From assembly GCA_938001965.1 (NCBI GenBank), contig CALLBC010000062.1, positions 1 to 61,162 of the forward strand: a stretch of 61,162 nucleotides of DNA, written 5' to 3'. Both the position numbers and the translations under genes were made by a program. Positions 6,583 through 59,888 of the stretch are shown here, one piece after another (the stretch's first letter is position 1; the number at the start of each line of letters is the position of its first letter). The DNA comes from an uncultured Bdellovibrionales bacterium (GTDB lineage: Bacteria; Bdellovibrionota; Bdellovibrionia; Bdellovibrionales; UBA1609). The notes beneath the pieces were generated by a model, which was not told the DNA's origin, ran no database searches, and worked only from the letters and a program-made list of their open reading frames with translations.

Positions 6583-6635
6583 AAAAAAACCATACAAATA
6601 TGGGCTTTTGTAATAAACTTTTTCCTATTAAAGTA

Positions 6636-44149: not shown

Positions 44150-45055
44150 TTAAGAAAACACAAAGGGTAAAATTAGCGAGCTAGGTTTATCTTTTTTGGG
44201 AAAGCTGAGGCCTTTTAACTCATTAGTGATTAAGTCAATAAGTTCGTCATTACCTATTAAGGCATTAATTTCAATTAAGGTGTCGCATAAATTATTTATA
44301 TTTTTAACGGAGCCATCAGGGTTAATGTTAACTTTAAAACTGAGTAAGCCATTAAAAACACCTTGAGTTTGAATTTTTAGATTCAAGTTATCCAATTGGG
44401 TGTTTAAGCTTGCGTGGCATTCTGCTTCAGTGAGTGCTCCAAAAAAACATGGGGAAGGCTCTGTGAACCAGCCATGAATAACAATGCGAGAGTCTTTAGG
44501 CTCGTGGGCGCCGTGAACCCTTTGTACTCCATGTGGAAATCTAGGGTCAAAAACAGTGAGTTGATTAAAGCGAGGTGGTATTGTTTCAATAAGTTGTGGC
44601 TTTTCCACGCCTGCTTTATTATCAAAAAAGTCCCAATAACTTAGGGTTTCAGGTTTTAGTAAAAAAGTTTCACCACCTGTAAATGTTCGCTTGTCCCAGT
44701 CAGTGAGAGAAAACACAAAGGCCCATGGTCCATGTGGGCTATCGCTATGTAGTTTTTGCTCGCAACCATCCACATAATAGCTTAGCCACATAGGGGAGAC
44801 ATTGTTACAGCCTAGGTTTTCTTTGCCCCAGCTAATTAAATATTTTTCAAAACTTTCATATAAGTCACCAGTAAAAAAATGCTCAGCCGGAGTTCGAATG
44901 AGTTTATACTGATCCTTTACATACCAGTAATCCCAGCAAAACCGTTCAGACTTAGTATCTAATGGGTTTTCAAACAACTTGGTGAAGTGGCCTCTTAATT
45001 GGTTTGCGTTAGGGTAGAAGTTTTGGTGGCTTTGCCAAAATGGTTGTTCACTCAT
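44150..45055 (-). CDS. Putative 2OG-Fe(II) oxygenase superfamily protein
   Basis: Possible HxD...H facial triad (KLHSDSPHG ... RFPHGVQRV) and a later RIVIHGW. Weak, motif-only call. Confidence 0.4.
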   Translation of the reverse strand: MSEQPFWQSHQNFYPNANQLRGHFTKLFENPLDTKSERFCWDYWYVKDQYKLIRTPAEHFFTGDLYESFEKYLISWGKENLGCNNVSPMWLSYYVDGCEQKLHSDSPHGPWAFVFSLTDWDKRTFTGGETFLLKPETLSYWDFFDNKAGVEKPQLIETIPPRFNQLTVFDPRFPHGVQRVHGAHEPKDSRIVIHGWFTEPSPCFFGALTEAECHASLNTQLDNLNLKIQTQGVFNGLLSFKVNINPDGSVKNINNLCDTLIEINALIGNDELIDLITNELKGLSFPKKDKPSSLILPFVFS

Positions 45056-45080
45056 GGGAGTTCCTTTAGGGGATTATGAA

Positions 45081-46283
45081 TTATTTAATTGCAGAATGCC
45101 CAGTAACATTCATGCCAATAACTAAGCGATGTATGTCTTCAGTTCCTTCATAAGTATTAACACTTTCAAGGTTTAACATATGTCTGATCACAGGGTACTC
45201 ATCAATCACACCATTAGCTCCTAACATATCTCTTGCTTCTCGGGCAATCTCAAGAGCCATTTTACAATTATTCATTTTTACAAGTGAAACTTGTGCAGGG
45301 GTGAGTTCGTTAGACTCTTTTAATCGTCCAAGCTGTAGAGATAAAAACTGAGCTTTTGTTATTTCTTGAACCATTTTAACAAGCTTGGCCTGGGCGAGCT
45401 GGTAGGCTGCCAGTGGTTTATCAAAAATCACCCTTGTTTTAGAATAGTTTAAAGCTATATCATAACAAGCATTAGCCGCGCCAAGAACACCCCAAGTTAT
45501 GCCATAGCGTGCTTGAGTTAAGCAGCTCAGTGGTCCCTTTAGTCCTTCGCAGTTAGGGAGTATTTGCTCCTCTGCCACAAAACAATCTTGCATATGCAGT
45601 TCAGAGGTAACACTCATGCGAAGGGAAAATTTACCTTTCATTGTGGTGGTTGAAAAACCGGGGCTATTAGTTTCAATAATAAAGCCGCGCACTTTTCCGT
45701 CAAGTTTTGCCCATACAATGGCAACATCGGCAATACACCCATTTGTGATCCACATTTTGTTGCCGGTGAGTTTGTAGCCACCATCAACTTTTGTGGCTTT
45801 TGTTTGCATTCCTCCTGGGTTGGAGCCAGCATCTGGTTCAGTCAGACCAAAACAACCTATAAAATCACCGGAAGCTAATTTAGGTAGGTACTTATTTTTT
45901 TGATCTTCGCTGCCAAATGCCCATATTGGGTACATAACAAGTGAGCCTTGAACTGAGCAAAATGATCTAAGGCCAGAGTCTGCTCTTTCAATTTCTTGCA
46001 TCGCTAAACCATAGCAAACATCACTTAGCCCAGGGCAGTTATAGCCTTTAATATTGGTTCCTAATAGGCCAAGGCTGGCAAACTTTTTAATTAATTCTTT
46101 TGGAAAGGTCTCGTTGCGGTTGTGGGACTGAATGATGTCTAAAACTTCATTGTTTACAAAGCTTCTTACCGAGTTGCGAATAGAAAGCTCTTCTTTGGTA
46201 AAAAGCTTATCAACGTTAAGAAAGTTTAGTGAATTGTAGCTCATATTTTCATCCACAGTTAAGGCAAAAAAAGTATTTCGCAA
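45081..46283 (-). CDS. gcdH: Glutaryl-CoA dehydrogenase (acyl-CoA dehydrogenase family)
   Basis: LGLLGTNIKGYNCPGLS, ERADSGLRSFCSVQGSLVMYPI, IGCFGLTEPDAGSNPGGM, KMWITNG, C-terminal TYEGTEDIH. The likely start is ATG 46244; the track start is TTG 46283. Confidence 0.85.
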   Translation of the reverse strand: MRNTFFALTVDENMSYNSLNFLNVDKLFTKEELSIRNSVRSFVNNEVLDIIQSHNRNETFPKELIKKFASLGLLGTNIKGYNCPGLSDVCYGLAMQEIERADSGLRSFCSVQGSLVMYPIWAFGSEDQKNKYLPKLASGDFIGCFGLTEPDAGSNPGGMQTKATKVDGGYKLTGNKMWITNGCIADVAIVWAKLDGKVRGFIIETNSPGFSTTTMKGKFSLRMSVTSELHMQDCFVAEEQILPNCEGLKGPLSCLTQARYGITWGVLGAANACYDIALNYSKTRVIFDKPLAAYQLAQAKLVKMVQEITKAQFLSLQLGRLKESNELTPAQVSLVKMNNCKMALEIAREARDMLGANGVIDEYPVIRHMLNLESVNTYEGTEDIHRLVIGMNVTGHSAIK

Positions 46284-46454
46284 TTATAAGTGTTTTTATT
46301 TTTTTTAACAAATTACTAGTAAAAAAACCAATGTTATTAGCTGGGGTGCATTACTATTTATGGTTTTAAGTTTAAAAATTAGTTTAATTACGTACAATAT
46401 TAGTATCTGAAAATCTACTGCTGCCACCAAAATTGCAGAGTTAAGGAGAGAAAA

Positions 46455-47171
46455 ATGAAAGTTATAATAAGTTTGTTGTTAATAGGGATGTTTTATACCG
46501 CTGGGGCTTTTGCTGAGGAAGTGACTGTGGGTAAGGTGAGTAAATCTGGTAAAAAGGCTGTTATATACATTCCTGAGGGAATGACTGTGGAGACGGGCCA
46601 AACATTAGTGATTGGCGGTGGAGAAAGTAAGGGGCAAGTGATGTTGCCTTCAGGAGTCTCTGCAAGAAACAAAGCTATTAGTGGAAATTTTAGCTTTTTT
46701 TCAGATACAGCAGAAACTACGATTGTTGGTCAAACCCCAGGATCAAGTGAACAAACCTCAATGGCTCTTGGACTAAATTATATTAAAAATAATGTAAATT
46801 TTGAGTTTGGTGGAGGCTTAACATACTCAAGTAGCTCAACCACAACGAAGAAAGATAGTTCTTATGGGTTGTCTGGTTTGTTTGAGTATAACTTTATGCC
46901 CAATAAACCAGGCACAACTGTGGTTGCTCATATAGGGGGAGAGCTGGGTTATGCTAGCGGCTCCAGTGAGACTAATACAGGCAGTAAGGATGAGAACTCA
47001 GGGTTAAAGTATGGAGTGTATGGCGGTGTTAAGTACTTTATGTTTCCAGCAAGTGGTTTTGCAATACAGGCTGATCTTGTTTATTTAATTGATAATTCTT
47101 TATCTCAGGATAACATCGATATTTCTGTTTCTAGGCTAGGGTTAAGAGCTGGAGTAAGATACTACTTCTAA
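46455..47171 (+). CDS. Outer-membrane beta-barrel protein
   Basis: Signal peptide ...YTAGAFA, Gly/Ser/Tyr-rich alternating strands, C-terminal GVRYYF. Confidence 0.65.
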   Translation: MKVIISLLLIGMFYTAGAFAEEVTVGKVSKSGKKAVIYIPEGMTVETGQTLVIGGGESKGQVMLPSGVSARNKAISGNFSFFSDTAETTIVGQTPGSSEQTSMALGLNYIKNNVNFEFGGGLTYSSSSTTTKKDSSYGLSGLFEYNFMPNKPGTTVVAHIGGELGYASGSSETNTGSKDENSGLKYGVYGGVKYFMFPASGFAIQADLVYLIDNSLSQDNIDISVSRLGLRAGVRYYF

Positions 47172-47179
47172 TTCAATTT

Positions 47180-47362
47180 CAATGCTCTGAATAAATATTC
47201 TTAATAATTTTCTTCAACTGTTACTAGAGTGCGCTTACGGCAGCATCCCGTCTTCGCACTCTATCACCCTTACGGGTGAGCACAGCGCGGATACGCGAAG
47301 CGCGACACGATACTCTAGAAAAAGTTGAAGCAAATTTTTAAAAATATTTATTCAGAAATTTG
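47180..47362. repeat. Foldback element, copy B
   Basis: Core 47231-47311 is 72/81 identical to copy A. The termini share ctctgaataaatatt. The arms are imperfectly self-complementary (~85% by eye). Begins ~9 nt after the stop at 47169-47171. Confidence 0.8.
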
Positions 47363-47376
47363 GATATTTTAATTAG

Positions 47377-47405
47377 ATAAAAAAAGCCACATACCCGGTA
47401 TGTGG
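47377..47405 (-). terminator. Rho-independent terminator for the 47437..48186 gene
   Basis: On the minus strand: gccacata-ccggg-tatgtggc followed by a run of T (the plus-strand A run at 47377-47384). Confidence 0.7.
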
Positions 47406-47436
47406 CTTCAAGTGAAAGGCTTTTAAAATTTAATGA

Positions 47437-48186
47437 TTAGTTGTTGCTAGTTGGGTTTGGGTTAAGAGCAGCATCAACTTTATCAAAACGAGCTAATAAA
47501 GAACCAGGTATTTTTACAGTTCTATCTTCAACAGACTTAGCTAACTTCTTAGCATCGTCAAATCGATTAGCTTCAATTAACATGTCCATATAAGCTTCTG
47601 TAACAGTTACTTGAAGTACATCTGGCTTTGAAGCTAGGATAGACTCAAAGTAGTCCACAGCAGCATCTGTGTTACCTTGCTTAGATAAAACTTTAGCAAA
47701 GTAATAAGCCGTCATTAAGTCTTCACCTTGATTAGTAAAGTAAGCACTTAAAGTTTCGTGAGCTTGCTCATAGTTTTCTAATTGATAATGTAATTTTCCT
47801 AATTTTTTAAGAACTTCTAGGTTGTTTGGATTGGCAGATAACTGCTCCTCTAATGATGACTGTACACAATCAATCATTTTTCTTTCTAAACAAATTTCTT
47901 GTAAACGGTTGTAGTTACTTTCGTCACCCATACCAACTGAGATCATTGCTTTATGTGGAATAACTTCTAATGAGTGGTTGCCCCAACGAACACTGTGTAA
48001 GAATGAGCCTGCAGTAATTACAGAGATACCTAGCATAATTAATATACTACTGCGATTTCTTTTTTTAGTACTAAGCTCTTCAGCGTTTGAATCCATATGC
48101 CCGCAGTGATTACAAATTACTGGTTTATATAGTAAGCGATCTTCGCTAATTTCTGATTTACATTTAGGACACGTTCCGTAGGTCAT
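47437..48186 (-). CDS. Zinc-ribbon / single-TM / TPR-repeat protein
   Basis: CPKC...CNHC N-terminal zinc ribbon, TM segment SILIMLGISVITAGSFL, and a C-terminal TPR-like region (NLEVLKKLGKLHYQLENYEQAHETL...). Confidence 0.6.
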   Translation of the reverse strand: MTYGTCPKCKSEISEDRLLYKPVICNHCGHMDSNAEELSTKKRNRSSILIMLGISVITAGSFLHSVRWGNHSLEVIPHKAMISVGMGDESNYNRLQEICLERKMIDCVQSSLEEQLSANPNNLEVLKKLGKLHYQLENYEQAHETLSAYFTNQGEDLMTAYYFAKVLSKQGNTDAAVDYFESILASKPDVLQVTVTEAYMDMLIEANRFDDAKKLAKSVEDRTVKIPGSLLARFDKVDAALNPNPTSNN

Positions 48187-48509
48187 TTTATAACTCCTTT
48201 AAAAGTTTTTAATTCAAATTTAACAAAAATTAATAAAGCAAATTGGATACCAGGATTTTTAAACGGGAGCTCAAAATTAAAAGGTTCTGAGCTGGAGTGA
48301 CTGACAAAAATAGGTCTTTGTGACGTAAATTGTAACTTCAATTAGGTTTGTTTATTTTTAGCTAAGTATCTGATAACAAAAGGTAAAACTGAATTTGTGT
48401 AAATAGCTTCAACTTTCTCAACAAGCTCATATGCCAGCCAGAGATGGACCCTTTTTTGTATATATAAGTATGAACCAATTTTATTTCATTGGGATAGGGA
48501 GTAAAGCAG

Positions 48510-50216
48510 ATGTTAAAATTAGTAATTGCAATCAGTATATTCGGGTTAGTTGCCTGTAATAGCGGTTTTGAGTCTGAAGGTAGGCCTTATACAGTTGGCC
48601 CAACAAAGGGTAGCTTTACTCCAGTTAACCCTGAAAAGGTTCCGGTTAAAATTAAAGATGGTAAAAATAAAGAAGCCGCCTCTTCGGGTTCAAATCATGT
48701 TCAACCTAGAAAAGATAATAAAAAAACTGACATTGTTGAGAAGAAAAAGAAAAGAGAATCAGTAAATTTATTCACTGGGCTTAATTTTGAAATTAACTTG
48801 GAGAGTACTTATGTAGACGGTGTTAAGCAGGAAGATGCAAAAGTGCATGTGGAGCTTAAAGGAGCTATGGTCATTTACGAAAAAAACAGTGAAGGTAAGC
48901 TAAAAAGAAAAAAGACAGTGAGTTTAAATCTTAAAAAGTCATACTACAGGTTTGATAAATCAACGGGTGTAGACAAGTTAGAGGAAAAAGACTTTTGGGC
49001 ATTTAGGCTTGTTGATGGGAAAACAGGCGTAGCAACTGATATTATGTGCTTAAGTAAATGGTCTTGTAAAACAGTTATTGCCAATTTGTATTGGTATGAA
49101 GGAGAGGACTTATTTAAAAAACAATTTCATGTTGAGAATACAATTCAACCAATGAGACTTGTGCCAGAAGAAAAGCCTACAGAAGATGAGCATGATGAAG
49201 TAGATATTCATATTGACTTGCATGAAGACAACCATGAACAAGAAACAGCTGGAGAGCCATCCGAGTATCTATATTTACCTATTAAGCAAGAGGACTTTAT
49301 TGAGAGTCAGGTTGAGGAAGTGGAGATTCCAGATGAGTCTGCTGATAAAATTATAGAGGATCTTGAAAGTCAAATTAAGCCAGTGAGTGAAGTGGAAGTT
49401 TCTGAGTTTGCATTACCCATGAGTAAAGTTTCTCAAAGAATTGATATTAAGGACCTAATTTTTGATTTTGACTCAGCTACAGTGAGTGTACTGAGTTCGG
49501 TAGAGTTACCGGTGCAAGCCTTAAGATGTCAGACCACTAAAAGTAGTGCTGGTTGTGCCAATGGTGGGGCCTTAGCTAATGCTGACCAGTTGAATGAGGC
49601 TATGCTATCTGATCTTGGTAAAATTGAAAGTTCATACTTTATTGGTAAAAATCGTACGAGTCATTCATATGGAACTTCAGTATTAGTTAGCTTGGTAGAG
49701 TCTGTTTCTGAGGCTGTTGATCTTAAATACGGGAGGAAAGCCTGTTTAGGAAATATGTCTAGGGAGCATGGCGGTCGTTTGCAAAAAGAGGGCGGTTCTA
49801 AAAGTCATCAAAATGGACTAGATATTGATTACTATTTTTATACAAAAGAAGCTCTTAACAAAGACAATTGTGCATTCAATGCCATTACTTCCAAAAGTAA
49901 TGTTTTTGATTTAGAAAGAAACTATTACTTTTTGACCGAGCTTTATAAAAAAGCTCAAGCTTATGATTCTAGTGGACAAAAATATAGCTACTTATTTAAT
50001 ATTTATTTAGATAAAAAACTTAAAAAGAAATTATGCACTTATGTTAAAGACACTGAAGGTGCCAATGCATTAGATGAAGGAACCGTCGGTTATGAAGTGA
50101 TGAGGCGAATCTCACACGAAGAGTATCATAAAGATCACTTCCATATTCGATTAAACTGCCATGGCACTGCCTGCAGAGACTACGGTCGCACAATCAGCGA
50201 TAAAACAGGTTGTTAG
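48510..50216 (+). CDS. Lipoprotein with C-terminal MepA-like LAS metallopeptidase domain (peptidase M74-like)
   Basis: Lipobox GLVACN. LAS motifs SHQNGLDIDYYF (HxxxxxxD) and HKDHFHIRLNC (HxH). About 330 aa of charged N-terminal extension have no recognised motif. Confidence 0.7.
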   Translation: MLKLVIAISIFGLVACNSGFESEGRPYTVGPTKGSFTPVNPEKVPVKIKDGKNKEAASSGSNHVQPRKDNKKTDIVEKKKKRESVNLFTGLNFEINLESTYVDGVKQEDAKVHVELKGAMVIYEKNSEGKLKRKKTVSLNLKKSYYRFDKSTGVDKLEEKDFWAFRLVDGKTGVATDIMCLSKWSCKTVIANLYWYEGEDLFKKQFHVENTIQPMRLVPEEKPTEDEHDEVDIHIDLHEDNHEQETAGEPSEYLYLPIKQEDFIESQVEEVEIPDESADKIIEDLESQIKPVSEVEVSEFALPMSKVSQRIDIKDLIFDFDSATVSVLSSVELPVQALRCQTTKSSAGCANGGALANADQLNEAMLSDLGKIESSYFIGKNRTSHSYGTSVLVSLVESVSEAVDLKYGRKACLGNMSREHGGRLQKEGGSKSHQNGLDIDYYFYTKEALNKDNCAFNAITSKSNVFDLERNYYFLTELYKKAQAYDSSGQKYSYLFNIYLDKKLKKKLCTYVKDTEGANALDEGTVGYEVMRRISHEEYHKDHFHIRLNCHGTACRDYGRTISDKTGC

Positions 50217-50355
50217 CCCGTTAGCCCGTAGTAAGCGAAGCTTACGATAGGGCGATAAACAAAAGCTTCCAAATTAATAGCGCTTCGTCCAGATTGGACG
50301 ACGCGATATTATTTGGAGTTCCTTAGGTTCCGTAGTAAACGAAGCTTGCGATAGG
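50212..50355. repeat. Composite intergenic repeat: tandem 8-mer, 26-nt direct repeats and a central palindrome
   Basis: gttagccc occurs twice in tandem (50212-50227, the first copy spanning the TAG stop). ccgtagtaagcgaagcttacgatagg (50226-50251) repeats at 50330-50355 (24/26). A palindrome at 50268-50317 is centred on cgtcca-gat-tggacg. Confidence 0.75.
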
Positions 50356-50404
50356 AAAATTTATTTTAAAGACAGGCTCTTAAAAGTTTGCTAGCCTATG
50401 TTCA

Positions 50405-50800
50405 ATGAAGCTAACTCCAAAAAGTATTTTTTTATTAGACGCCATTGGCGCGCTTGTCTCATTTATTTTTTTATACATTATACTAAGAAAGCTTATTCAT
50501 CTGATTGGAATGCCAGATGATGTTTTGGTGTTTTTAGCTGGATTTGCGTTGGGCTTTTTTGCCTATTCTTTAAGTTGTTATATTTTTGTTAAATCTCGAC
50601 ACTGGAGATGGTTATTTGTAATTATTGTGGCAAATTTACTATATTGCTTGTTGTCCCTGTTCTATATGTTTGAGAATTACCAGTCCTTAACTAAGCTAGG
50701 GGTATTTTATTTCTCCTTAGAAAAGCTAATTGTGTTGTATATAGTTTATGTAGAGTATGGTTTGTTTAAAACAAGTAAAAATGATGTGCTTAAATCATAA
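50405..50800 (+). CDS. Small integral membrane protein (about 4 TM)
   Basis: Four hydrophobic segments. No motif recognised. Confidence 0.5.
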   Translation: MKLTPKSIFLLDAIGALVSFIFLYIILRKLIHLIGMPDDVLVFLAGFALGFFAYSLSCYIFVKSRHWRWLFVIIVANLLYCLLSLFYMFENYQSLTKLGVFYFSLEKLIVLYIVYVEYGLFKTSKNDVLKS

Positions 50801-50825
50801 CTTCAATAGTAGAGTGGTAGAGCTT

Positions 50826-51572
50826 ATGTATAATCAACTTATAAAAGAATTAAAAGCTACATTTTATGAAGAGCTCGACGGTCAGTCCACCGGTATTATA
50901 TACGGATCAGCAGCAATCGGTGATTGGGTTTCTGCAAGAAGTGATTTAGATGTGATAGTTCTTATTGAGTCTATGGCACTAATTGATAAGGTTTCTACTC
51001 AATTTAAAAAATGGAAATCAAGCCACTCTCATGAGTTATTGGATGGATTTTTATTAATTAAGGATGGCTCTCATTTAACAGCCAAAAGTTTTTATAATTT
51101 TGACTCATCACCAAAGAGTCTTAGTGAAGCAATTTTAACACCAGATATTTGGAAAATAAAAAATGAGTCTAAAGTACTATTTGGAAGTGCCAATATTAAG
51201 TCTATGGTTAGAAGTGTTGATTCAGTTGAAATGAGAAAGTGGGCAAAAGAAAATAAAAAGCAATTTTGGATACCAAGTATTAAAAACTCTATTGCTCAAA
51301 TCAGCCTTCTTCCTCAAGACAAATTGCTACCACTCAATCCAGCAATTTGGATTGCTAGTGGTGCAGCTAGAATTAAGACTCTCGAAATGACCGGAAGCTG
51401 TATGTCTAAACAAGATGCTTTAAGCTGGTTAATAAAAAAAGGTGAGGGTCCTGTGGATTTAATAAAAATGCTTTTAGAAAATTATAAAATTTCAGACTCA
51501 GCTGCTCCAAAAATGTCCAAAGTAGATGCCGGTCTAATTGCAAAACACGCTCTAAGTATTATTGAAGAATAG
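50826..51572 (+). CDS. Nucleotidyltransferase-fold protein, aminoglycoside adenylyltransferase (ANT(3'')/AadA)-like
   Basis: ATG 50826 gives MYNQLIKELKATFYEELDGQSTGIIYGSAAIGDWVSARSDLDVIVL (the GS...D-x-D NTase motif). Length and N-terminal layout resemble AadA. Confidence 0.65.
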   Translation: MYNQLIKELKATFYEELDGQSTGIIYGSAAIGDWVSARSDLDVIVLIESMALIDKVSTQFKKWKSSHSHELLDGFLLIKDGSHLTAKSFYNFDSSPKSLSEAILTPDIWKIKNESKVLFGSANIKSMVRSVDSVEMRKWAKENKKQFWIPSIKNSIAQISLLPQDKLLPLNPAIWIASGAARIKTLEMTGSCMSKQDALSWLIKKGEGPVDLIKMLLENYKISDSAAPKMSKVDAGLIAKHALSIIEE

Positions 51573-51635
51573 AGTTTCCTGGCTTCTAAATACATGCAAA
51601 GCCTACCTCAATAAAATACTAAATTTTTTAAAAAA

Positions 51636-52514
51636 TTATTTACTATCCTCAAAAAAACCAATACCTGGACGAGAGTTGTTAATTTCATTATCAAAATCAT
51701 TAAAAGGGATAAATACTTTCCTCAGAGAGTCTTTCGTCCATAATTGTATATGTTCACTTTGAGTCTTATGATAAAAATTTCTAAATTGATGTGCCTTACG
51801 ATATGAATGAGGAATTGAATCCTGAATAATATAATTACATTCTTCAGTTCGCCCAGCAATAGTAACGTAATGATTATCATAGGTTAAAGCCACCATATTT
51901 CCACTTTTGAGCTGACTATCAATTTGCTTGATCAGCTCTTCTGGCTCCATGTGAGGAGGGGCATATGGATACTTATTTTTATAATTTTCAAAAGCTTGAA
52001 ATGTTAATTCCTTAAAAGGTTTATCAACACCACCGTTACATTTTTCTTTAAATTCTTTTTTAAACTGCAAAAATTCAGAGGGATTAGCTTTATTGTGCAG
52101 TAATAAGTACCATTTTTCCATTTGTTCAGATTTTAAATATGATGAAAATTCATTAACTGTACAGTAATTCCCATGTTTAAGTGTAGAACTTAAAACATCT
52201 GGAATATCTCCTCCGTAACCCATGTGTAGCGGAAACCTATTTCCTTGTTCAGGCCAGCTAATAGCATATTCTACCCCAATAGATTCTGGTGATATTGGTT
52301 TTCCGAGGCGTTGCCCAATTAGATTGGCTAAGGTGAATGCATAACAAAAACGAGAATCTTTAAGCTCTCCATCATTTAAATATAACTGAGATCTAACTGG
52401 GGCTATATTACCTTGTCTCAAATCAACAGGGGTGCACTTTTTCTCATGATTTTGCGCAAAAATGGCTTGTGTGTGTAAAAGTATTAGACATAGTATTACT
52501 ATTAAGCCCTTCAT
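51636..52514 (-). CDS. Exported protein, possible clan-CA (papain-fold) cysteine peptidase
   Basis: ATG 52514 (AAGGGG upstream) gives the signal peptide MKGLIVILCLILLHTQAIFA. Candidate triad: Cys in SRFCYAFT, His in DNHYVTIAG, Asp in YIIQDS ~15 residues later. Confidence 0.5.
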   Translation of the reverse strand: MKGLIVILCLILLHTQAIFAQNHEKKCTPVDLRQGNIAPVRSQLYLNDGELKDSRFCYAFTLANLIGQRLGKPISPESIGVEYAISWPEQGNRFPLHMGYGGDIPDVLSSTLKHGNYCTVNEFSSYLKSEQMEKWYLLLHNKANPSEFLQFKKEFKEKCNGGVDKPFKELTFQAFENYKNKYPYAPPHMEPEELIKQIDSQLKSGNMVALTYDNHYVTIAGRTEECNYIIQDSIPHSYRKAHQFRNFYHKTQSEHIQLWTKDSLRKVFIPFNDFDNEINNSRPGIGFFEDSK

Positions 52515-52669
52515 TATAATCCCCTTAAGAAACAACTTATATGATTGCAACTACTATTCCAACTCGATAAATGTACAGGCTATTATTTTCTAATAATCAG
52601 GGCCTGGTTTCTATATTTAACAAGTTTAAAATATTGACTGTATTAGCATGTTAAATAAATAATATAAAA

Positions 52670-53233
52670 ATGGAAAAAAAGATTAATAACTTAATTATAA
52701 AGTTAGATACTTCAAGTGATAAGAAAGCTGAGGTAATAATAAAAAGGTTAACTGCATTTGGGTCTGATGCTATACCTCAGTTAGTTTCTTCGGCTAATGA
52801 TAAATCATTTCCTAAAATTAGAAAGTGGAGCCTGCAAGCACTTGGAGCTATTGGTGATAAAAAAGGAGCATGTCCCTTACTTTCTGCTTTGGATGATGAC
52901 AGAATGACAGTTCGCTTGCATGCCGTTCATGGTTTAAAAAGAATGAAATATAAACCAGCAGAATTAAAATTAATTTCTTTACTAAAAGATAGTAGTGGCG
53001 GGATAAGAGTAAATACAATCGATGCTTTAATCGAAATCAAATCTAAAAAAGCAGAGAATGGTCTAATTAAATGTTTAAATGATTCTTCTTGGTATGTTAG
53101 GCAGCATGCTGCTATTGCTTGTGGCAAGCTAAATTTGAAGAAGGCAAAAAGTAAATTAAAGAAATTAGCTTCACATGATCCTCGAAAGGTTGTGAGAGAA
53201 GTATCTAAGACTGCCCTAGAGCAAATTTGCTAA
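52670..53233 (+). CDS. HEAT-repeat (PBS-lyase-like) protein
   Basis: Repeated ~30-aa units: IRKWSLQALGAIGD, VRLHAVHGLKRM, IRVNTIDALIEI, VRQHAAIACGKL, VVREVSKTAL. Confidence 0.7.
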   Translation: MEKKINNLIIKLDTSSDKKAEVIIKRLTAFGSDAIPQLVSSANDKSFPKIRKWSLQALGAIGDKKGACPLLSALDDDRMTVRLHAVHGLKRMKYKPAELKLISLLKDSSGGIRVNTIDALIEIKSKKAENGLIKCLNDSSWYVRQHAAIACGKLNLKKAKSKLKKLASHDPRKVVREVSKTALEQIC

Positions 53234-53408
53234 AACCTTAGCTCCTAAATAGAGAGTAGATACTTTAGTAGGGCACTCATTAACAATGGCTATTGTTATA
53301 TCATAGGATTGTATTATCAAAACTCCCAATAGCAAGACTTAAGTACGATAGATTTTGTTGCCTCTACTTTTAATGTAATTTAGTCAGAATTAGTTATATC
53401 ATTAACTT

Positions 53409-54011
53409 ATGAAAAAACTATTAATCATTTTATTATTTTGCTCCACTGCTTATTCAAATGACAGTGAGTTAAGAGAGAAAAGTTTTGTAAGTGACACCAT
53501 TAATTTTGTATCTGAAGTTTTAGCAGCCAAGAATAAAAAGTGTAGCTTAACAAATAGGTTTATGACTACTGGAGTGAGAGATGATAGTGGCTTTAAAGCA
53601 CCAAGGCTTGCAATTTGCAAAGCTAAATGTGCACCAGAGGACAAAACAGTAGATGATGAAAAAGACTGGATAACAGAGAGTCATTATTACATATACTTAC
53701 CTACACTATATAAAAATCTTGAAGATGCCTGTAACAAAAAAGGCAGTAATCACAAATATGATCGTAATAGTATCACTTGCGATATTGAAGATGCCTATGG
53801 CGGCCGAAAAGAAAAAGGGGCAACAGAACTTGATACCGATATCAGCCAGTTTAAAAGCTACAGCTGTGATCTTACTTGTTGGGATAATGGTGAAATTTCA
53901 GAACTTAACTTTACTGGTGAGCCAAGTGAAAAAGCTTGGATTGATTGGAATGTCATAAAATCCTGCCGAGGTAAAAAGAAAGTTATGGACCTAAATTGTA
54001 AGTATGATTAA
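53409..54011 (+). CDS. Exported Cys-rich orphan protein (200 aa)
   Basis: Signal peptide MKKLLIILLFCSTAYS and about 11 Cys. No recognised motif. Confidence 0.55.
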   Translation: MKKLLIILLFCSTAYSNDSELREKSFVSDTINFVSEVLAAKNKKCSLTNRFMTTGVRDDSGFKAPRLAICKAKCAPEDKTVDDEKDWITESHYYIYLPTLYKNLEDACNKKGSNHKYDRNSITCDIEDAYGGRKEKGATELDTDISQFKSYSCDLTCWDNGEISELNFTGEPSEKAWIDWNVIKSCRGKKKVMDLNCKYD

Positions 54012-54169
54012 TAAACATTAATAAAGAGATTATTTTAATCCGTCAGTGTTTTTAGGGCAGAGACTATGTCTTCCGTAAAAATATAGATAAAATTTGGTAT
54101 GTAATTCTGCAAATGTTAAGTTTCTGTTAAATCGAACTATTGATATAAATACATTTTGACAAAAATTAT

Positions 54170-55132
54170 TTGAAGCTCAACTATATGGTCGTGAAGTCAC
54201 AACTGATGTCATTATTATTTTTAGTTATTGGTTGCTATGGAGGTTATAAGATGGCCAATAAGCAGCCTCAGCCCATAAATGAGCAAGCCATTGTAGCAGA
54301 GCTTGATTCTTATAAGGTCAAATACAATGAACTAAAAAGTAAATTCCAGCTATTAAGTGATAATGAAATAGAAAGTTACATTAATGAAGATGACCTTAGC
54401 TTAAAAACTGAAAAAGCAGATGCTATGCTTGCTAAGCTACTAAAATTATTTTTAATTGATGTGGGTTTAAGGCTTCAGGAGCAAAGTAGCCGCCTCGAAT
54501 CGTCCCAAAAGAGTTATGGGACTGCCTCTAAAAATCTATCTACAAAACCACAGTCTGCTATTTCTGCGCCCAAGTGTAATTATACTAAACAAACTTGTGA
54601 AAAAATGTTTGGCGAGTTTAAACTTGCCTTAGAGTCAATTAATTGGAAACAAAAGGAAAGTAAATTGTCAGGGTTGTCTTCTGAGGGAAAAATTGATTCC
54701 TTTTTAAATGAAGTAAAAGTGGATAACCTTTTTGAATATTTAAAGAGCTCTTACAAGCCTAAAAATAATTTATACTCTCGTTTGATTGGTCTTTTTAGTG
54801 GTGATGTCATATTTGATGATGGCCAACCAGCACTTAAGATGGAATTCCAATTAAAAAATGATTTAGAGTATAAAAAAGGTGAGTATTATGGCACTTACAG
54901 AATCCAATTATTTAGAGATGGAAAAAGTATAAGTAACGCCAACGGTGATGGAAGGTTAAACTTTTTGAAGAGTTATAATAAAAAGAGTAAGGGTTTTATA
55001 ATAAATTCTGGTCGATGGTACTTCCATTTGTACTTTGGACCAACTAGACAATTTTTATTTGGCAATGTTTATGAAAAAAAAGATGTATCCACTTATCATA
55101 AAGTTGCAAAAGTGATTCTAAATCGAAAGTAA
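54170..55132 (+). CDS. Orphan protein, probable lipoprotein (start uncertain)
   Basis: LMSLLFLVIGCYGG lipobox-like segment near the N-terminus, a coiled-coil-like middle and a beta-rich C-terminus. Confidence 0.55.
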   Translation: MKLNYMVVKSQLMSLLFLVIGCYGGYKMANKQPQPINEQAIVAELDSYKVKYNELKSKFQLLSDNEIESYINEDDLSLKTEKADAMLAKLLKLFLIDVGLRLQEQSSRLESSQKSYGTASKNLSTKPQSAISAPKCNYTKQTCEKMFGEFKLALESINWKQKESKLSGLSSEGKIDSFLNEVKVDNLFEYLKSSYKPKNNLYSRLIGLFSGDVIFDDGQPALKMEFQLKNDLEYKKGEYYGTYRIQLFRDGKSISNANGDGRLNFLKSYNKKSKGFIINSGRWYFHLYFGPTRQFLFGNVYEKKDVSTYHKVAKVILNRK

Positions 55133-55421
55133 AACCTACTGCCGAGCGTTAATATTTAAGAAATTGTCAGTGTCACAATACCACCAGTAATCTGCCGAGA
55201 ATTAATAGAATTTAGTTACGCATAAATTAGTTTAAGATTTTACTTCATAAAATTTGTTGGAGCCAAACTGTCCCTAGAAATATTAAACAGCTTATCAAAA
55301 GTCTTCGCAAGATAAAGATCAATAGATATAAATAGTATGGATTGTAATAGTTTATAATAATTTTAAATCGATTTGGTTTAATTTTTTACGCTCGTTTACC
55401 GAGCGAGAGGGGAGAGTGAGA

Positions 55422-57092
55422 ATGGATAGTGAATCTAATCGTTTCATTAATAAAATTGCATATATATTTATTGCGACTTTATTTTTAGCAACAGCATTTA
55501 TTAGTACTGATGTGTATGCGGACAGTTCTGATGATAGTATAAAAATACTAAGAAATAGAGATCGTGGTGACCGTAACGATAGAAAAAAAGCTCGTGAAAA
55601 TAAAAGGCAAGAGCGTAGACAAGAACGCGCCCGTCCAGAGCGTCAAAGAAATCGTGACAGCGCCAGACAAGAGCGCCCAAGAAATCGTGACCGTGCTAGA
55701 CCAGAGCAACCAAGAAGAAACCCAGATAGAACAAGGCCAAATCGCCCAAGAAACCCAGATAGAACAAGACCAAATCGTCCAAGTAATCCAGATCGCACAA
55801 GACCAAATCGTCCAAGCAATCCAGATAGAACCAGGCCAAATCGCCCAAGAAATCCTGATCGCACAAGACCGAATCGTCCAAGCAACCCAGATAGAACAAG
55901 GCCAAACCGCCCAAGAAATCCGGATCGTACAAGACCTAATCGTCCAAGAAACCCTGACAGAGTTAGGCAAGAAAGACGACAAAGAGAAAGAGATCGTGTA
56001 GAGCGTGAGCAAAGACGTCGTCGTCAAGCTCGTCGTGCAGACCGATTAAGAGATCGTGATCGTAGACATCACAGACGTGTTAGTCGTGACAGATATAGGC
56101 AACACAGACGTTACCATAGATACCCTAGAAGAACGATTCGTCATCATCACAGATGGACTATTCGTTACAACAGATGGTGGAGAAATCATCACCGTTGGGG
56201 GCATCCAGGATGGCCGCATGACAGAATTCATTATCCTTCAAGATGGCCAAATACATCTGATAGATGGTCAGTTTATCAAATTATTAATGTGGCAGATAAC
56301 TTAGAAACTAAGTTTGAGCACATATATAATATGGTTGCAAACCAGTATGGAAGAAGTTCGTCCATAGCGACTAAAGCTTACGCGCTTTGGAGTGCTGCTC
56401 AAGTTTACAGTGATTGCGTAGAGTTTTATAATGGAAACTTACACTTCTCATTATATGAGCTTTATAACTTAGAAGAAGCAGCTTCTAACTTTGAAAGTGA
56501 ACTGAATAGATACGGTTCATCTTCAAGTGTTCATAGGCATTTCAATGTTGGTAAGTTCTTTATCAATGAACTGTTATGGCAGTACCGTCAGCAAATTGGT
56601 CATATCGATACGTGGAGAGATCAAATTAATGAAGGTGACAGTTGGAGACAAGACGCTAATGATGAGTGGGATGATGTAAATGATACTTATTCATCTAAAA
56701 GCTTTTACTTCTGGTGGACAAAGCCACATAGAGTTGCAACTTGGACACTTGATACACCAACCACTTTAAGCTCCATATCTCTTGAGGCGGTTAATACAAA
56801 TGGCCTCAGAGGTAAAAACGGAGTGGCTGGAATTAGCGAAATTTTACTGATCTATACTGATGGTAGTGAGTTAAATATTGTTAGTAGAAGTCATGAAAAG
56901 TACTCGCAAAGATCTGGGCAGTTAGTGTTGCGTGATCAAGGAGACTTCCTTGAAGTGTATAACCCTAATCCAAACTTAAAAGTTCGTGAGATTCAGATAA
57001 AAGCGGACTCTTGGGTAGCTCCTGAGGTGGATGTTGATATTCAAGTTAATATTAACTCTTATGAGTTAAACTCACTAAGAAACTTAAATTAA
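55422..57092 (+). CDS. Exported, extremely Arg-rich repeat protein with His/Trp/Arg-rich linker and globular C-terminal domain
   Basis: ATG 55422 is preceded by GGGGAG; GTG 55416 is the track start. Signal-like FINKIAYIFIATLFLATAFISTDVYA. 7 x NPDRTRPNRP(R/S). Then RRHHRRVSRDRYRQHRRYHRYPRR...WWRNHHRWGHPGWPH, followed by ~270 aa of ordinary composition. Confidence 0.75.
   Translation: MDSESNRFINKIAYIFIATLFLATAFISTDVYADSSDDSIKILRNRDRGDRNDRKKARENKRQERRQERARPERQRNRDSARQERPRNRDRARPEQPRRNPDRTRPNRPRNPDRTRPNRPSNPDRTRPNRPSNPDRTRPNRPRNPDRTRPNRPSNPDRTRPNRPRNPDRTRPNRPRNPDRVRQERRQRERDRVEREQRRRRQARRADRLRDRDRRHHRRVSRDRYRQHRRYHRYPRRTIRHHHRWTIRYNRWWRNHHRWGHPGWPHDRIHYPSRWPNTSDRWSVYQIINVADNLETKFEHIYNMVANQYGRSSSIATKAYALWSAAQVYSDCVEFYNGNLHFSLYELYNLEEAASNFESELNRYGSSSSVHRHFNVGKFFINELLWQYRQQIGHIDTWRDQINEGDSWRQDANDEWDDVNDTYSSKSFYFWWTKPHRVATWTLDTPTTLSSISLEAVNTNGLRGKNGVAGISEILLIYTDGSELNIVSRSHEKYSQRSGQLVLRDQGDFLEVYNPNPNLKVREIQIKADSWVAPEVDVDIQVNINSYELNSLRNLN
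55719..55949 (+). repeat. Seven in-frame 33-bp tandem repeats (coding), with a degenerate eighth unit to ~55982
   Basis: The units aac/aat cca/cct/ccg gat aga/cgc/cgt aca/acc agg/aga cca/ccg/cct aat/aac cgc/cgt cca aga/agt/agc were read directly. Only the last codon changes the amino acid (R/S). Confidence 0.9.
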
Positions 57093-57120
57093 ACTTAGTT
57101 ATATAAATTTGTAATGAATT

Positions 57121-57149
57121 AAGGGGCCATGTATTGGGCCCTTTTTTTT
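57121..57149 (+). terminator. Rho-independent terminator after the Arg-rich protein gene
   Basis: aaggggcc-atgtattg-ggccctt followed by a T run. Confidence 0.7.
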
Positions 57150-57230
57150 GTATAAGCTCAAGGATATGCCCAAAATTTAATCATAAAATTTGATTATTAA
57201 TTGGAGTATCTAGCTAAAGTAACAGGACTA

Positions 57231-57258
57231 TTGACTTGTTAAGTTTATAAACTATCAT
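57231..57258 (+). promoter_or_regulatory. Candidate sigma-70-type promoter for mscL
   Basis: TTGACT (57231-57236), 16-nt spacer, TATCAT (57253-57258), ~50 nt upstream of the mscL ATG. Pattern match only. Confidence 0.3.
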
Positions 57259-57306
57259 TATCACAAGATAGAAATAAATTTAATTAATACAACGAGGAGA
57301 AACAAA

Positions 57307-57699
57307 ATGGGAATGATGTCTGAATTTAAAGACTTTGCCATAAAAGGCAATGTTGTTGATATGGCAGTTGGTTTAGTAATTGGTGCTGCTTTTGGTAAGA
57401 TCGTAAGCGCGTTTGTTGCTAATATTATTACTCCGCCAATTGGTTTATTAATGGGTGGTGTTGATTTTAGTAAGCTAGGCTATGTTTTACAAGAAGCCGG
57501 TGAAGGAAAAGAAGCTGTTGTTATGAAATACGGTATTTTTATCCAAAGTGTTCTAGATTTTATAATTATTGCTTTTGCAATTTTTATGGTTGTTAAAGCT
57601 ATTAATTCTGCAAAGAAAGCTGAAGAAGAAGCAGCTCCTGCAGGACCAACTGATGATCAAAAGCTACTTGCTGAAATCAGAGATGCTTTAAAAAAGTAA
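57307..57699 (+). CDS. mscL: Large-conductance mechanosensitive channel
   Basis: [40 protein letters not shown] is the canonical MscL N-terminus/TM1. GAGGAG Shine-Dalgarno-like sequence upstream. Confidence 0.93.
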
Positions 57700-57720
57700 G
57701 TCCATTTAATTAATATTGTA

Positions 57721-57757
57721 AAAGGCCACTAAATCTATTTTAGTGGCCTTTTTTTTT
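57721..57757 (+). terminator. Rho-independent terminator after mscL
   Basis: 13-bp perfect stem aaaggccactaaa / tttagtggccttt, loop tctat, T run to 57757. Confidence 0.85.
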
Positions 57758-57876
57758 ACCCTTTCTGAGTGCGGCGAGTCATAACTCTTCCATGTCCTGA
57801 CAAATTCTAATTCATTAGCTAGTTTGGTGAGTGGTCTGAAGCGGCCCAACTAATTCTTGATAAAAGAAGGTTAACC

Positions 57877-59226
57877 ATGTTTGATAATTTGTCTGATAAA
57901 TTGCTTGGCAGTATAAAAAAACTGAAAGGGCAATCTAAAATAACTGAAAAAAATATCCAAGATATAACTAAGGAAATTCGCCTTAGTTTATTAGAGGCCG
58001 ATGTAAACTTTAAAGTTGTTAAGTCTTTTATAGAAAATGTAAAAACTAAGGCCCTTGGGCAAGAGGTTTTATTAAATGTAAATGCTGGTGAGCAGTTTGT
58101 TAAGATTGTCCATGAAGAGTTAAAAGAGCTATTGGGTGGCGAGGAAGTTCCTTTAAATGTGAAGGGGCCAATGGCCACAATTATGTTAGTGGGTTTACAG
58201 GGGGTGGGTAAAACCACTAGTGCCGCAAAACTAGCATTGTATATTCGAAAAAAACTAAAAAAGAAACCTGGTTTGGTGTCTGTGGATGTTTACCGTCCTG
58301 CCGCCATTGAACAGTTAAAAACTTTAGGTAAGCAAAATAATATTCCCTGTTTTGACTCTGACCCAAGCGATAAACCCCTAGATATTTTAGCAAAAGCTCA
58401 AGCCTGGGCTAAAAATGAAATGGTTGAGGTTTTAATACTTGATACGGCTGGCCGCTTACAAATTGATGAAACTCTAATGGATGAGCTGGCCGGTTTAAAA
58501 AAACACATTGACCCAAAAGAGGTCATACTAGTGGCAGATGCCATGCTTGGTCAGCAGTCAGTAAATGTGGCTGAAGGCTTTCATGATAAGTTAGGTTTAA
58601 CTGGTCTTGTGTTAACCAAAATAGACGGGGACGCAAGAGGTGGTGCCGCTTTAAGTATAAGGCATACTGTAGGTGTTCCAATAAAATTTTTAGGTGTGGG
58701 TGAAAAGGTTTCAGCTTTAGAGCAGTTCCATCCGGATCGTTTAGCTTCTAGAATTTTAGACATGGGTGATGTCCTGTCCTTAGTTGAAAAAGCTCAAGAA
58801 GTGATTGATGAAAAGTCAGCTCGCGAGTCAGCTCGTAAAATGGCTAAAAATAAATTCACTGTGGATGATTTTTTAAAGCAAATTCAAATGATGAAAAAAA
58901 TGGGAGGCATGGAAGGTATTTTAAAAATGCTTCCTGGTGCGGGCCAAATGATGAAAAAAATGAAAGGTATGGCACCGCCAGATAAAGAGATTAAAAAGAT
59001 TGAAGCCATCATTAGATCTATGACGCAAAAAGAGCGAGATAACCATAAGCTACTCAACGGCTCAAGACGAATACGAATAGCCAAAGGGAGTGGGACTCAA
59101 GTTCAAGATGTTAATAAGTTCATTAAACAATTTGAAGAATCTAGTAAGATGATGCAAAAAATGATGAAGATGGGTATGGGCGGAATGATGGGCCGAGGCG
59201 GTCGCGGCGGAGGAATGCCTTTTTAA
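57877..59226 (+). CDS. ffh: Signal recognition particle protein Ffh
   Basis: N domain, G domain GLQGVGKTT / DTAGR / TKIDGD, Met-rich M domain, Gly/Arg tail. Confidence 0.95.
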   Translation: MFDNLSDKLLGSIKKLKGQSKITEKNIQDITKEIRLSLLEADVNFKVVKSFIENVKTKALGQEVLLNVNAGEQFVKIVHEELKELLGGEEVPLNVKGPMATIMLVGLQGVGKTTSAAKLALYIRKKLKKKPGLVSVDVYRPAAIEQLKTLGKQNNIPCFDSDPSDKPLDILAKAQAWAKNEMVEVLILDTAGRLQIDETLMDELAGLKKHIDPKEVILVADAMLGQQSVNVAEGFHDKLGLTGLVLTKIDGDARGGAALSIRHTVGVPIKFLGVGEKVSALEQFHPDRLASRILDMGDVLSLVEKAQEVIDEKSARESARKMAKNKFTVDDFLKQIQMMKKMGGMEGILKMLPGAGQMMKKMKGMAPPDKEIKKIEAIIRSMTQKERDNHKLLNGSRRIRIAKGSGTQVQDVNKFIKQFEESSKMMQKMMKMGMGGMMGRGGRGGGMPF

Positions 59227-59249
59227 ATAATGGCTTGTAGTTTTTTATA

Positions 59250-59284
59250 TAAAAAAAAGAGCTAGCAGAAGCTAGCTCTTTTGA
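59250..59284. terminator. Bidirectional terminator between ffh and the convergent lipoprotein gene
   Basis: agagctagc-agaa-gctagctct, flanked by an A run upstream and a T run downstream. Confidence 0.75.
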
Positions 59285-59309
59285 CTTAAGAATATATTGT
59301 AAGCAGATA

Positions 59310-59888
59310 TTACATTCCGTTCGGAGATAAAGCTTCATCAACTTCAGCGATAACAGCTTTATTAGTTTCAATTCTTTTTTTGATTTGATCAGCACCAACG
59401 CTAGAAACTTCTTGTACAGAAGGAAGTAAAGCCATGTCGTCACGTAATTCTATTTGAGCAGTGTACTTCTTTTCTAGTAACTCAAGACCACCAATTTCAA
59501 GATCAAGAGTTTTAATTTTTTTAGTAACTTCAGCATCAACAGCTTTTGCGTCGTCTAAAGCAGCTTTGAAAGAAGTAATTTTGTTTAAATCAGCACTGTT
59601 TCCAGAGTTAATAGCAATTTCAGTAATTTCATTAAAGTCAGCTTCAGCTTGTTTAACGCTTAAGATTGTTGATTCAGACTCAAGAACTAACTCACTTTTT
59701 TCAGATTTAGTAATTGCTAAATCTGCCTTTACTTTATCTAGTCTGTCTTCAAGAGTTTCAACAGTTTGTTTTTCTAGATTTGAAACTGTCGTGTTTGTTC
59801 CTTTTGAGCTTTCGCCATTGCTACAAGCAATCATAGAAACAGATGTTAAAGATAATAGTACGGCACATAAAGTAGTTTTCATTTTCAT
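59310..59888 (-). CDS. Coiled-coil lipoprotein (192 aa)
   Basis: MKMKTTLCAVLLSLTSVSMIAC lipobox. The remainder is Ala/Glu/Lys-rich with a heptad-like pattern. Confidence 0.6.
   Translation of the reverse strand: MKMKTTLCAVLLSLTSVSMIACSNGESSKGTNTTVSNLEKQTVETLEDRLDKVKADLAITKSEKSELVLESESTILSVKQAEADFNEITEIAINSGNSADLNKITSFKAALDDAKAVDAEVTKKIKTLDLEIGGLELLEKKYTAQIELRDDMALLPSVQEVSSVGADQIKKRIETNKAVIAEVDEALSPNGM

Follow-up and report, generated by a model that had tools for sequence, protein, structure and literature searches.

A putative exported protein of a Bdellovibrio-like bacterium carries a codon-diverged Arg/Pro repeat stalk on a family-conserved head

Predatory Bdellovibrio-like bacteria attract study as living antibiotics; for the most part, the proteins that they export are uncharacterised. 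A 61,162-nucleotide stretch of DNA from an uncultured Bdellovibrionales bacterium (contig CALLBC010000062.1 of assembly GCA_938001965.1; this whole stretch is called the window below) holds at 55422..57092 a gene whose product would be one of these proteins, and which encodes seven consecutive copies of an 11-residue peptide rich in arginine and proline. What keeps such a peptide intact, and what is it attached to? We found that the units retain their peptide while their codons drift, and that within a rare protein family a constant head is joined to stalks of very different sequence and charge. We favour, at a probability of roughly 0.45, an exported accessory protein made of a selected, extended charged stalk, which in this protein would be polycationic and stick to anionic polymers, and a binding head.

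The seven exact units, NPDRTRPNRP[R/S], span amino acids (aa) 100-176 and lie at 55719..55949 (+), where an earlier note made from the letters alone had placed them. They fall into two codon subtypes that form a super-unit of 66 nucleotides (nt), and they are flanked by decayed copies: 33-nt units upstream (55627-55716; 2.7 copies, 80% matches) and a degenerate eighth unit, NPDRVRQERRQ, downstream (55950..55982, +). Among the seven DNA units 10 of the 33 columns vary. Nine of these are third codon positions; the tenth is a first position, with AGA/CGC, a synonymous pair. The residue changes at column 33 only (R/S). Viewed by codon, ten positions across seven units show no residue change, and eight codons vary synonymously. 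The earlier note had taken the peptide to be conserved by purifying selection and not generated by recent slippage, and had proposed a comparison of silent and replacement changes between units. This comparison returned a strong synonymous excess, the proportions of synonymous (pS) and nonsynonymous (pN) differences being 0.51-0.58 and 0.023-0.046. Nei-Gojobori counting with path averaging gave pS 0.512 and pN 0.046; along the least-nonsynonymous path pS was 0.583 (98/168) and pN 0.023 (12/525), a ratio of 0.039, so that pN/pS of the array is 0.04-0.09 over both ways of counting. A minimum of 14 substitution events is required, at most one of them nonsynonymous, and with synonymous sites making up 8/33 (24%) of the unit the binomial P is 1.1e-7. 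Counting by columns (9/10 synonymous) gave P=2.3e-5. These values support purifying selection at the peptide level rather than recent slippage. Since each unit's peptide has been kept identical while its codons drifted, the stalk does not behave as a neutral linker.

The codon subtypes also record how the array may have grown. Units 1, 4 and 6 share one subtype and end in Arg, while units 3, 5 and 7 share the other. Within the latter, Ser is the last residue of units 3 and 5, and unit 7 agrees with them in most codons yet ends in Arg; unit 2 is a hybrid. Tandem Repeats Finder assigned the array 87% matches at a period of 66 nt and 79% at a period of 33 nt. Silent differences had probably accumulated between the two halves of a 22-aa double unit before its amplification enlarged the array. 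A single nucleotide separates units 1 and 6, and because near-identical units may be collapsed in a draft assembly, seven is a minimum-confidence copy number. Prolines recur along the array at gaps of 4, 2 and 2 (Pro-X4-Pro-X2-Pro-X2).

The repeats open long open reading frames (ORFs) in other frames as well (55564-56001, +; 55548-56027, -), and the source genome assembly looks draft, with 266 contigs. Both observations would suit a spurious ORF or a mis-assembled repeat. This explanation is effectively refuted: variation concentrated at third positions, which is seen in this frame only, confirms the reading frame, homology of the C-terminal half backs it, the head recurs in conserved form across 31 representative proteins and 16 genome loci, and the fold of its beta domain is predicted confidently. 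A Shine-Dalgarno sequence, a start and a terminator are also present. The ORF runs on the + strand from 55416 (GTG) or 55422 (ATG) up to 57092. The Shine-Dalgarno sequence AGGGGAG (55408..55414, +) stands 7 nt ahead of the ATG, so that a product of 556 aa plus stop (55422..57092, +) is likely, starting where the earlier note had it. An intrinsic terminator hairpin with an 8-bp stem followed by a T-run lies at 57121..57152 (+), with hairpin and T-run located at 57121-57144. We therefore treat 55422..57092 as what it is, a genuine gene.

The remainder of the protein follows the division that the earlier note had described, an Arg-rich half, a His/Trp/Arg block and a part of normal composition. 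Residues 35-266 contain 35.3% Arg and 12.5% Pro and carry a net charge of +56 at an isoelectric point (pI) of 12.0. Residues 267-556, the 290-aa head, are of ordinary composition with a net charge of -13 and a pI of 5.0. Ahead of the array, a charged N-terminal stretch (55521..55718, +) contains the motif SIKILRNRDRG, common to paralogues and orthologue, as well as the decayed upstream units. Behind it come a Glu/Arg-rich segment with the family-conserved motif RRQARRxDRLRD (55983..56060, +) and a basic-aromatic block of Arg, His, Trp and Tyr (56061..56219, +). The core of this block, RRxIRxHxRWxxRYxxWW...RW, is conserved in an alignment of five compared sequences. In four of the five its hydrophobic moment peaks at 100-110 degrees, and 0.7-4% of shuffles reach the observed value; the core possibly folds as a helix that is amphipathic and has aromatic residues along one face. 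The His-rich block is unlikely to hold a conserved metal site, as there are 11 His in aa 176-266 of the window protein versus about 3-5 in two orthologues.

Would the protein leave the cytoplasm? Its first residues (aa 1-33; 55422..55520, +) are arranged like a Sec-type signal peptide, in n, h and c regions, with R7 and K11, a hydrophobic core from aa 12 and then V-Y-A/D. Hydropathy over 12 aa is highest from aa 12 onwards (Kyte-Doolittle value 2.51), and small residues occupy -3 and -1 of the proposed cleavage site VYA/DSS, which was placed by eye at residue 33. Cleavage there leaves a mature protein of 523 aa and 63.6 kDa. A signal-peptide-like start, recognised by eye and with the help of a crude hydropathy script, is present in every family ORF with an intact start that was inspected, with AxA-type cleavage sites, placed by eye, after the hydrophobic segment. 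The script found a hydrophobic 12-mer of Kyte-Doolittle value >=1.89 within the first 60 aa of 18/19 scored sequences, the exception being the C88 paralogue copy, which is truncated at its 5' end. Export, which the earlier note had also proposed, is plausible.

If the exact peptide is under selection, how does it fare in relatives? The source genome itself holds three copies of the gene, in the window and on contigs C53 and C88, whose heads are 53-56% identical. The C53 copy (L003:1468-3225, -) is complete with 585 aa. The C88 copy (L002:1465-3630, -) has at least 721 aa and is cut by the contig end just after the signal peptide. Common to the three are the post-signal motif IK[IL][LM]xRRxRDxG, the RRQARRxDRLRD stretch, the basic-aromatic segment and the head. 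The stalks differ: the Arg/Pro stalk of the window carries +54 within script-defined boundaries, the Gln/Glu/Arg stalk of C53 carries +7, and that of C88 carries +6 over at least 433 aa, mainly in 34-aa Glu/Arg repeats of which there are at least five units (RRREAERERAQEERRRQEERERAEREQRDRDEEV). In two same-genus genomes an orthologue lies beside mscL, as the gene of the window does. The unit of the closest orthologue (L005/L013) is SRPDRGRPDRP, in an array that is interrupted by an N run, and a second (L007/L014) has EARRNEERQRRD repeats, inside which the contig edge falls. Over seven shared codons the units differ by 3.4 nt within the window, by 4.3 nt within L005 and by 5.5 nt between the two, and at the three residues that differ, every unit compared in register has the residue of its species. 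After the split, therefore, homogenisation or re-amplification has acted on the arrays, and later drift was confined to silent sites.

These relatives bear directly on the idea that the array is a neutral low-complexity spacer, a fast-evolving linker in which composition and disorder matter and the peptide does not. Unit sequence, length and net charge do vary among orthologues and paralogues, decayed units lie at both edges of the array, and the repeat is unique to the window protein: a search of 5.8 billion clusters with the repeat region as query matched only itself (7772 candidates, 305-973 aa). However, a neutral spacer accounts poorly for a pN/pS of 0.04-0.09 (P about 1e-7), or for a unit consensus that is 8/11 identical to that of the closest orthologue though the two heads are merely 58% identical. 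The silent-drift pattern is also found elsewhere in the family, with pN/pS at or below 0.15 in 9/12 array rows (pS 0.18-0.86; the window, two arrays of G002, L017, L027, L022, L024b, L020 and L028; the 12 rows leave out the L015 array). Identical peptides on diverged codons across several independent arrays argue that the exact periodic peptide, and not composition alone, is selected, and we consider the neutral spacer unlikely. The earlier note had held that a variable repeat number with nonsynonymous drift among orthologues would speak against selection. Half of this was borne out: units and charge do differ among relatives. The exact peptide and the hyper-cationic charge are consequently lineage-specific and not family traits.

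We then asked how far the family extends. With the head (aa 267-556) as query, 5.8 billion clusters yielded two proteins other than itself (three matches with self, from 1039 candidates), and 1.84 billion representatives yielded 31 matches at E<=1e-3, 15 at <=1e-10 and 2 at <=1e-30. A scan of one genome per species returned 16 family loci from 64 pattern matches, and all 16 are titled Bdellovibrionales, Bdellovibrionota, Pseudobdellovibrionaceae, Bdellovibrionaceae or Bdellovibrio. Whole-genome searches located the family in 7/41 relatives with a head profile and in 10/401 genomes of the phylum with a four-helix-bundle profile, the source genome (G000) being included in both counts; one of the ten (G148, E 6.6e-4) is doubtful, its match being a 28-aa frame with three stops. 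The family is rare and patchy, and accessory in status. A metagenome scan found no close orthologue of the Arg/Pro-type protein among the three loci that it returned. One of these, L029, carries a full-length relative that belongs to the C88 paralogue type; the contigs L030 and L031 were rejected, as they carry near-identical 616-aa primase/helicase-like ORFs that have in common with the family only the acidic peptide DANDEWDD of the head linker.

That no described family has this repeat, as the earlier note believed, agrees with what we found, since neither Pfam, NCBIfam nor a Protein Data Bank (PDB) profile search gave anything usable and the repeat query found only itself. Pfam returned 0 families at E<=1 for the whole protein, the best NCBIfam score was 14.9 bits against a cut-off of 650, and the best E value of the PDB sequence-profile search was 0.49, with only lectin rows at about 0.5. 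Full-text literature searches returned no paper on the family or the repeat. One candidate, PMC8616854, was set aside because, in the passages retrieved from it, the Bdellovibrio target and the 'arginine-rich' text concern unrelated proteins. As judged by sequence comparison, this is a small undescribed family, so far seen only in Bdellovibrio-like bacteria.

Its members share an order of parts. The signal peptide is followed by tandem repeats that are specific to each lineage, then by a Glu/Arg-rich stretch and by the basic-aromatic segment together with the four-helix bundle; a beta domain may be present or absent. Between relatives the stalk differs completely in unit, length and net charge. 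Some units are built of Pro, Arg and Glu (ERERPAPPP, RPPREQPPAP, ERPTRPNRPI, ARPPRDTRPAPPPRDPGS), others are basic (DRPNRDRRNDRVKK and RTERRTEKRHERRHDRR). A second group has, besides its signal peptide and Glu/Arg repeats, only the beta domain, preceded by an acidic Pro-rich linker. One member, P0031, begins with a lipobox, LAAC. P0028 (1138 aa), a distant relative, has several tandem jelly-roll copies with the motif F-x-Y-S/P-K/S-P-H-N-S-Y-T-W ahead of a long Cys-rich region; this arrangement suggests that the beta domain is a mobile module that other exported proteins use too.

What does the stalk carry? The AlphaFold2 model of the head, built on the family alignment, has a mean predicted local distance difference test score (pLDDT) of 74.1 and consists of an up-down four-helix bundle (predicted, aa 284-392; 56271..56597, +) with helices at head residues 18-43, 48-69, 74-97 and 102-126, a low-confidence acidic linker and a beta-sandwich at head residues 161-279. 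Modelled alone from 25 aligned sequences, the beta domain reached a pLDDT of 86.6 and a predicted template modelling (TM) score of 0.81. It is predicted to be a jelly-roll beta-sandwich resembling galactose-binding domains (aa 427-545; 56700..57056, +), which gives the beta-rich end recognised in the earlier note a likely fold and sets it behind a helical bundle. Its best match was the C-terminal domain of 3gza_B (Z 8.8, root-mean-square deviation 2.7, 95 residues aligned); the carbohydrate-binding module of NanJ (CBM32, 2v72_A) scored Z 7.5, with the proviso that Z under 8 may reflect just a common arrangement. Foldseek placed it near PAPP-A (E 7e-4) and the neuropilin b1/discoidin domains (up to 2e-3). 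The predicted jelly roll can be superposed on CBM32, F5/8 type C/discoidin and neuropilin b1 domains, the galactose-binding-like folds overall giving Z 6.4-8.8, Foldseek E 7e-4 to 8e-3 and TM scores of 0.4-0.56. A protein-atlas search produced only sub-threshold leads (top score 0.77), of which those to F5/8-C clusters, at 0.76, indicate that class of fold as well. Unlike members of the CBM32 and F5/8 type C families, the window protein has no match to their sequence models (Pfam, E<=1; lectins at E about 0.5 in the PDB profiles), and identity in the structural alignments is 4-17%.

How might these parts work together? On the reading that we favour, the Sec signal peptide would carry the protein out of the cytoplasm, and the mature N-terminal half (about 233 aa, +56, pI 12) would be a non-globular stalk. 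Its seven-unit core, with Pro-X2-4-Pro spacing, would form a polyproline-II-like rod of ~24 nm when fully extended (77 aa at the textbook value of 0.31 nm per residue). The conserved Arg/aromatic segment, potentially amphipathic, comes after the stalk and is followed by the acidic head (pI 5) with its predicted four-helix bundle and galactose-binding-like jelly roll. The head would be the constant working part. The stalk would serve as a spacer or tether, particular to each lineage, and its charge would determine what it adheres to. As a polycation, the window stalk would adhere to anionic polymers of the envelope or matrix, such as lipopolysaccharide, cell-wall polymers or extracellular nucleic acid, and hold the head away from them. 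What the data show are the make-up of the protein, the signature of selection, the distribution of the family and the folds as predicted. That the protein is exported, that its stalk is extended, that the stalk binds polyanions and that the head binds a ligand is what we infer.

Proline-rich and charged stalks with a globular end invite comparison with TonB and TolA. According to PMC12204202, Pro-X1-4-Pro repeats are a hallmark of the polyproline-II spacers of TonB, an SHLS motif lies in the N-terminal transmembrane helix, and proline-rich and helical versions of domain II interchange in TolA/TonB. The window protein shares with the description given there the N-terminal hydrophobic segment, the charged, poorly conserved Pro-X1-4-Pro or helical spacer (gaps 4, 2, 2) and the globular C-terminus. 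A tether or ruler of this kind, anchored in the inner membrane with a stalk spanning the periplasm and a head at the wall or outer membrane, would fit this architecture, the alternation of proline-rich and Glu/Arg stalks among the paralogues, which resembles that of TolA/TonB domain II (PMC12204202), the lipoprotein P0031, and the murein hydrolase genes near some loci (L013, the window, L022 and L024). The diagnostic parts are nevertheless lacking: Pfam reported no TonB_C, TolA or TolA_C domain, the N-terminal segment has no SHLS motif and instead ends in AxA-type sites of a probably cleavable signal peptide, the head is a predicted four-helix bundle with a jelly roll, and no ExbBD or TolQR motor genes occur among 15 window ORFs (44150-59885) and 62 neighbour ORFs at 12 loci. 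A distribution of 10/401 genomes is likewise unlike that of a housekeeping envelope part. We regard a TonB/TolA-like tether as quite improbable. The long Glu/Arg(/Gln) repeats that take the place of Arg/Pro in C88, C53 and L029 recall ER/K-type single alpha-helix spacers, and presumably have the composition of such charged helices; the window stalk, being proline-rich and strongly cationic, is not helix-compatible.

A cationic tail in a predatory lineage also raises the possibility of a prey-directed effector, in which Arg/Pro repeats and the Arg/Trp block would attack prey envelopes or ribosomes, possibly after proteolytic release. The confinement of the family to that lineage, the tail of +56 with its RPxRP motifs and the helical amphipathic periodicity of the Arg/aromatic segment are in keeping with this. 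The RPxRP motifs and Arg/Trp stretch bear what we take to be a resemblance to PR-39, Bac7 and indolicidin-type peptides. Proline-rich antimicrobial peptides, however, are short animal peptides of tens of residues with PRP-type motifs, and a mature bacterial protein of 523 aa and 63.6 kDa with a conserved folded head does not belong to that class. Nor does it belong with protamine-like condensers, which are small intracellular proteins dominated by Arg clusters: it has a signal peptide, Arg makes up 35% of its tail, and its folded head is large and acidic. The stalks of the paralogues and of many relatives are near-neutral or acidic, neither processing sites nor secretion-system partners came to light, and the family was not found in 391/401 sampled genomes of the phylum. 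We therefore think such an effector unlikely. A bolder proposal combines several of these elements, and taken as a whole it is likewise unlikely. In it, the repeats would be active periodic binding elements and not spacers. The constancy of the unit peptide within each lineage (pN/pS 0.04-0.15 at pS 0.2-0.86) would arise because the array matches a periodic polyanionic target or self-assembles, the predator would place a multivalent polycation, made up of the +56 Arg/Pro array and the Arg/Trp amphipathic segment, on envelope phosphates, wall polymers or nucleic acid and ribosomes of its prey, and the three paralogues, with cationic, neutral and long helical stalks, would be a tool set for different targets. 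If this were true, the protein would represent a new class of predatory-bacterium effector.

Several observations weigh against the stalk-and-head reading that we prefer. Stalk charges from about -22 to +92 mean that polyanion binding cannot be the common mechanism of the family. Three arrays have a higher pN/pS (C88 0.27; L024, a mixed array, 0.27; L016 0.52, which is a poorly registered two-unit sample). Because units must differ in DNA for short-read assemblies to resolve an array, there is a sampling bias towards synonymously diverged arrays, and several family arrays end in N runs or at contig ends. The export call rests on sequence features. For the beta domain, just 1 of 48161 chains scored Z>=8, which indicates a resemblance of fold class and not membership, and because the F5/8-C model of Pfam gave no match and fold scores were middling, ligand binding by the head is proposed by analogy only. 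The matches of the four-helix bundle are generic, namely single-chain ROP (the best, Z 13.9), talin rods and designed bundles, Z below about 13 being uninformative for helical bundles. Finally, no conserved partner gene was found among 62 ORFs of 12 related loci and those of the window.

Exported proteins that combine a binding module with a repeat stalk, charged or rich in proline, are of a familiar kind. New are the head family, its restriction to Bdellovibrio-like bacteria, three stalks on one head, and the silent-drift pattern across the family. The genome thereby provides a natural experiment, with one head on three stalk chemistries: polycationic polyproline, neutral, and long charged Glu/Arg. 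If the stalk binds prey polymers, this would indicate a new type of effector; if it is a spacer only, the family offers a compact model of charged-spacer evolution.

The repeat gene is monocistronic, with mscL (57307-57699) and ffh (57877-59226) downstream. A consensus scan found no sigma-70-like site on the + strand of the 290-nt upstream spacer, and 5 sites versus 7.1 expected in the region. Further upstream, a 568-aa ORF (48510-50216, +) has a long N-terminal extension without a match and a C-terminal Peptidase_M74 domain (MepA-like murein endopeptidase, E 2e-15). At L013 the M74 gene lies directly upstream of the repeat-protein gene, so that in the window an insertion of some 5 kb with additional ORFs (50405-55132) separates the two genes. 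Murein hydrolases occur near three to four loci (M74 at L013 and ~5 kb upstream in the window, MltA at L022, SLT at L024), too few to argue from. At a single locus, L015, a gene for a PBECR2 (phage-Barnase-EndoU-ColicinE5/D-RelE-like nuclease) protein (6232-6960, -) lies about 1.4 kb downstream of the family member. Two small ORFs without a significant Pfam match, which look exported and both have hydrophobic N-termini, immediately precede the repeat gene in the window: one of 200 aa (53409-54011, +) is Cys-rich with a signal-peptide-like start, and one of 320 aa (54170-55132, +) has a possible lipobox, LVIGC, near its start.

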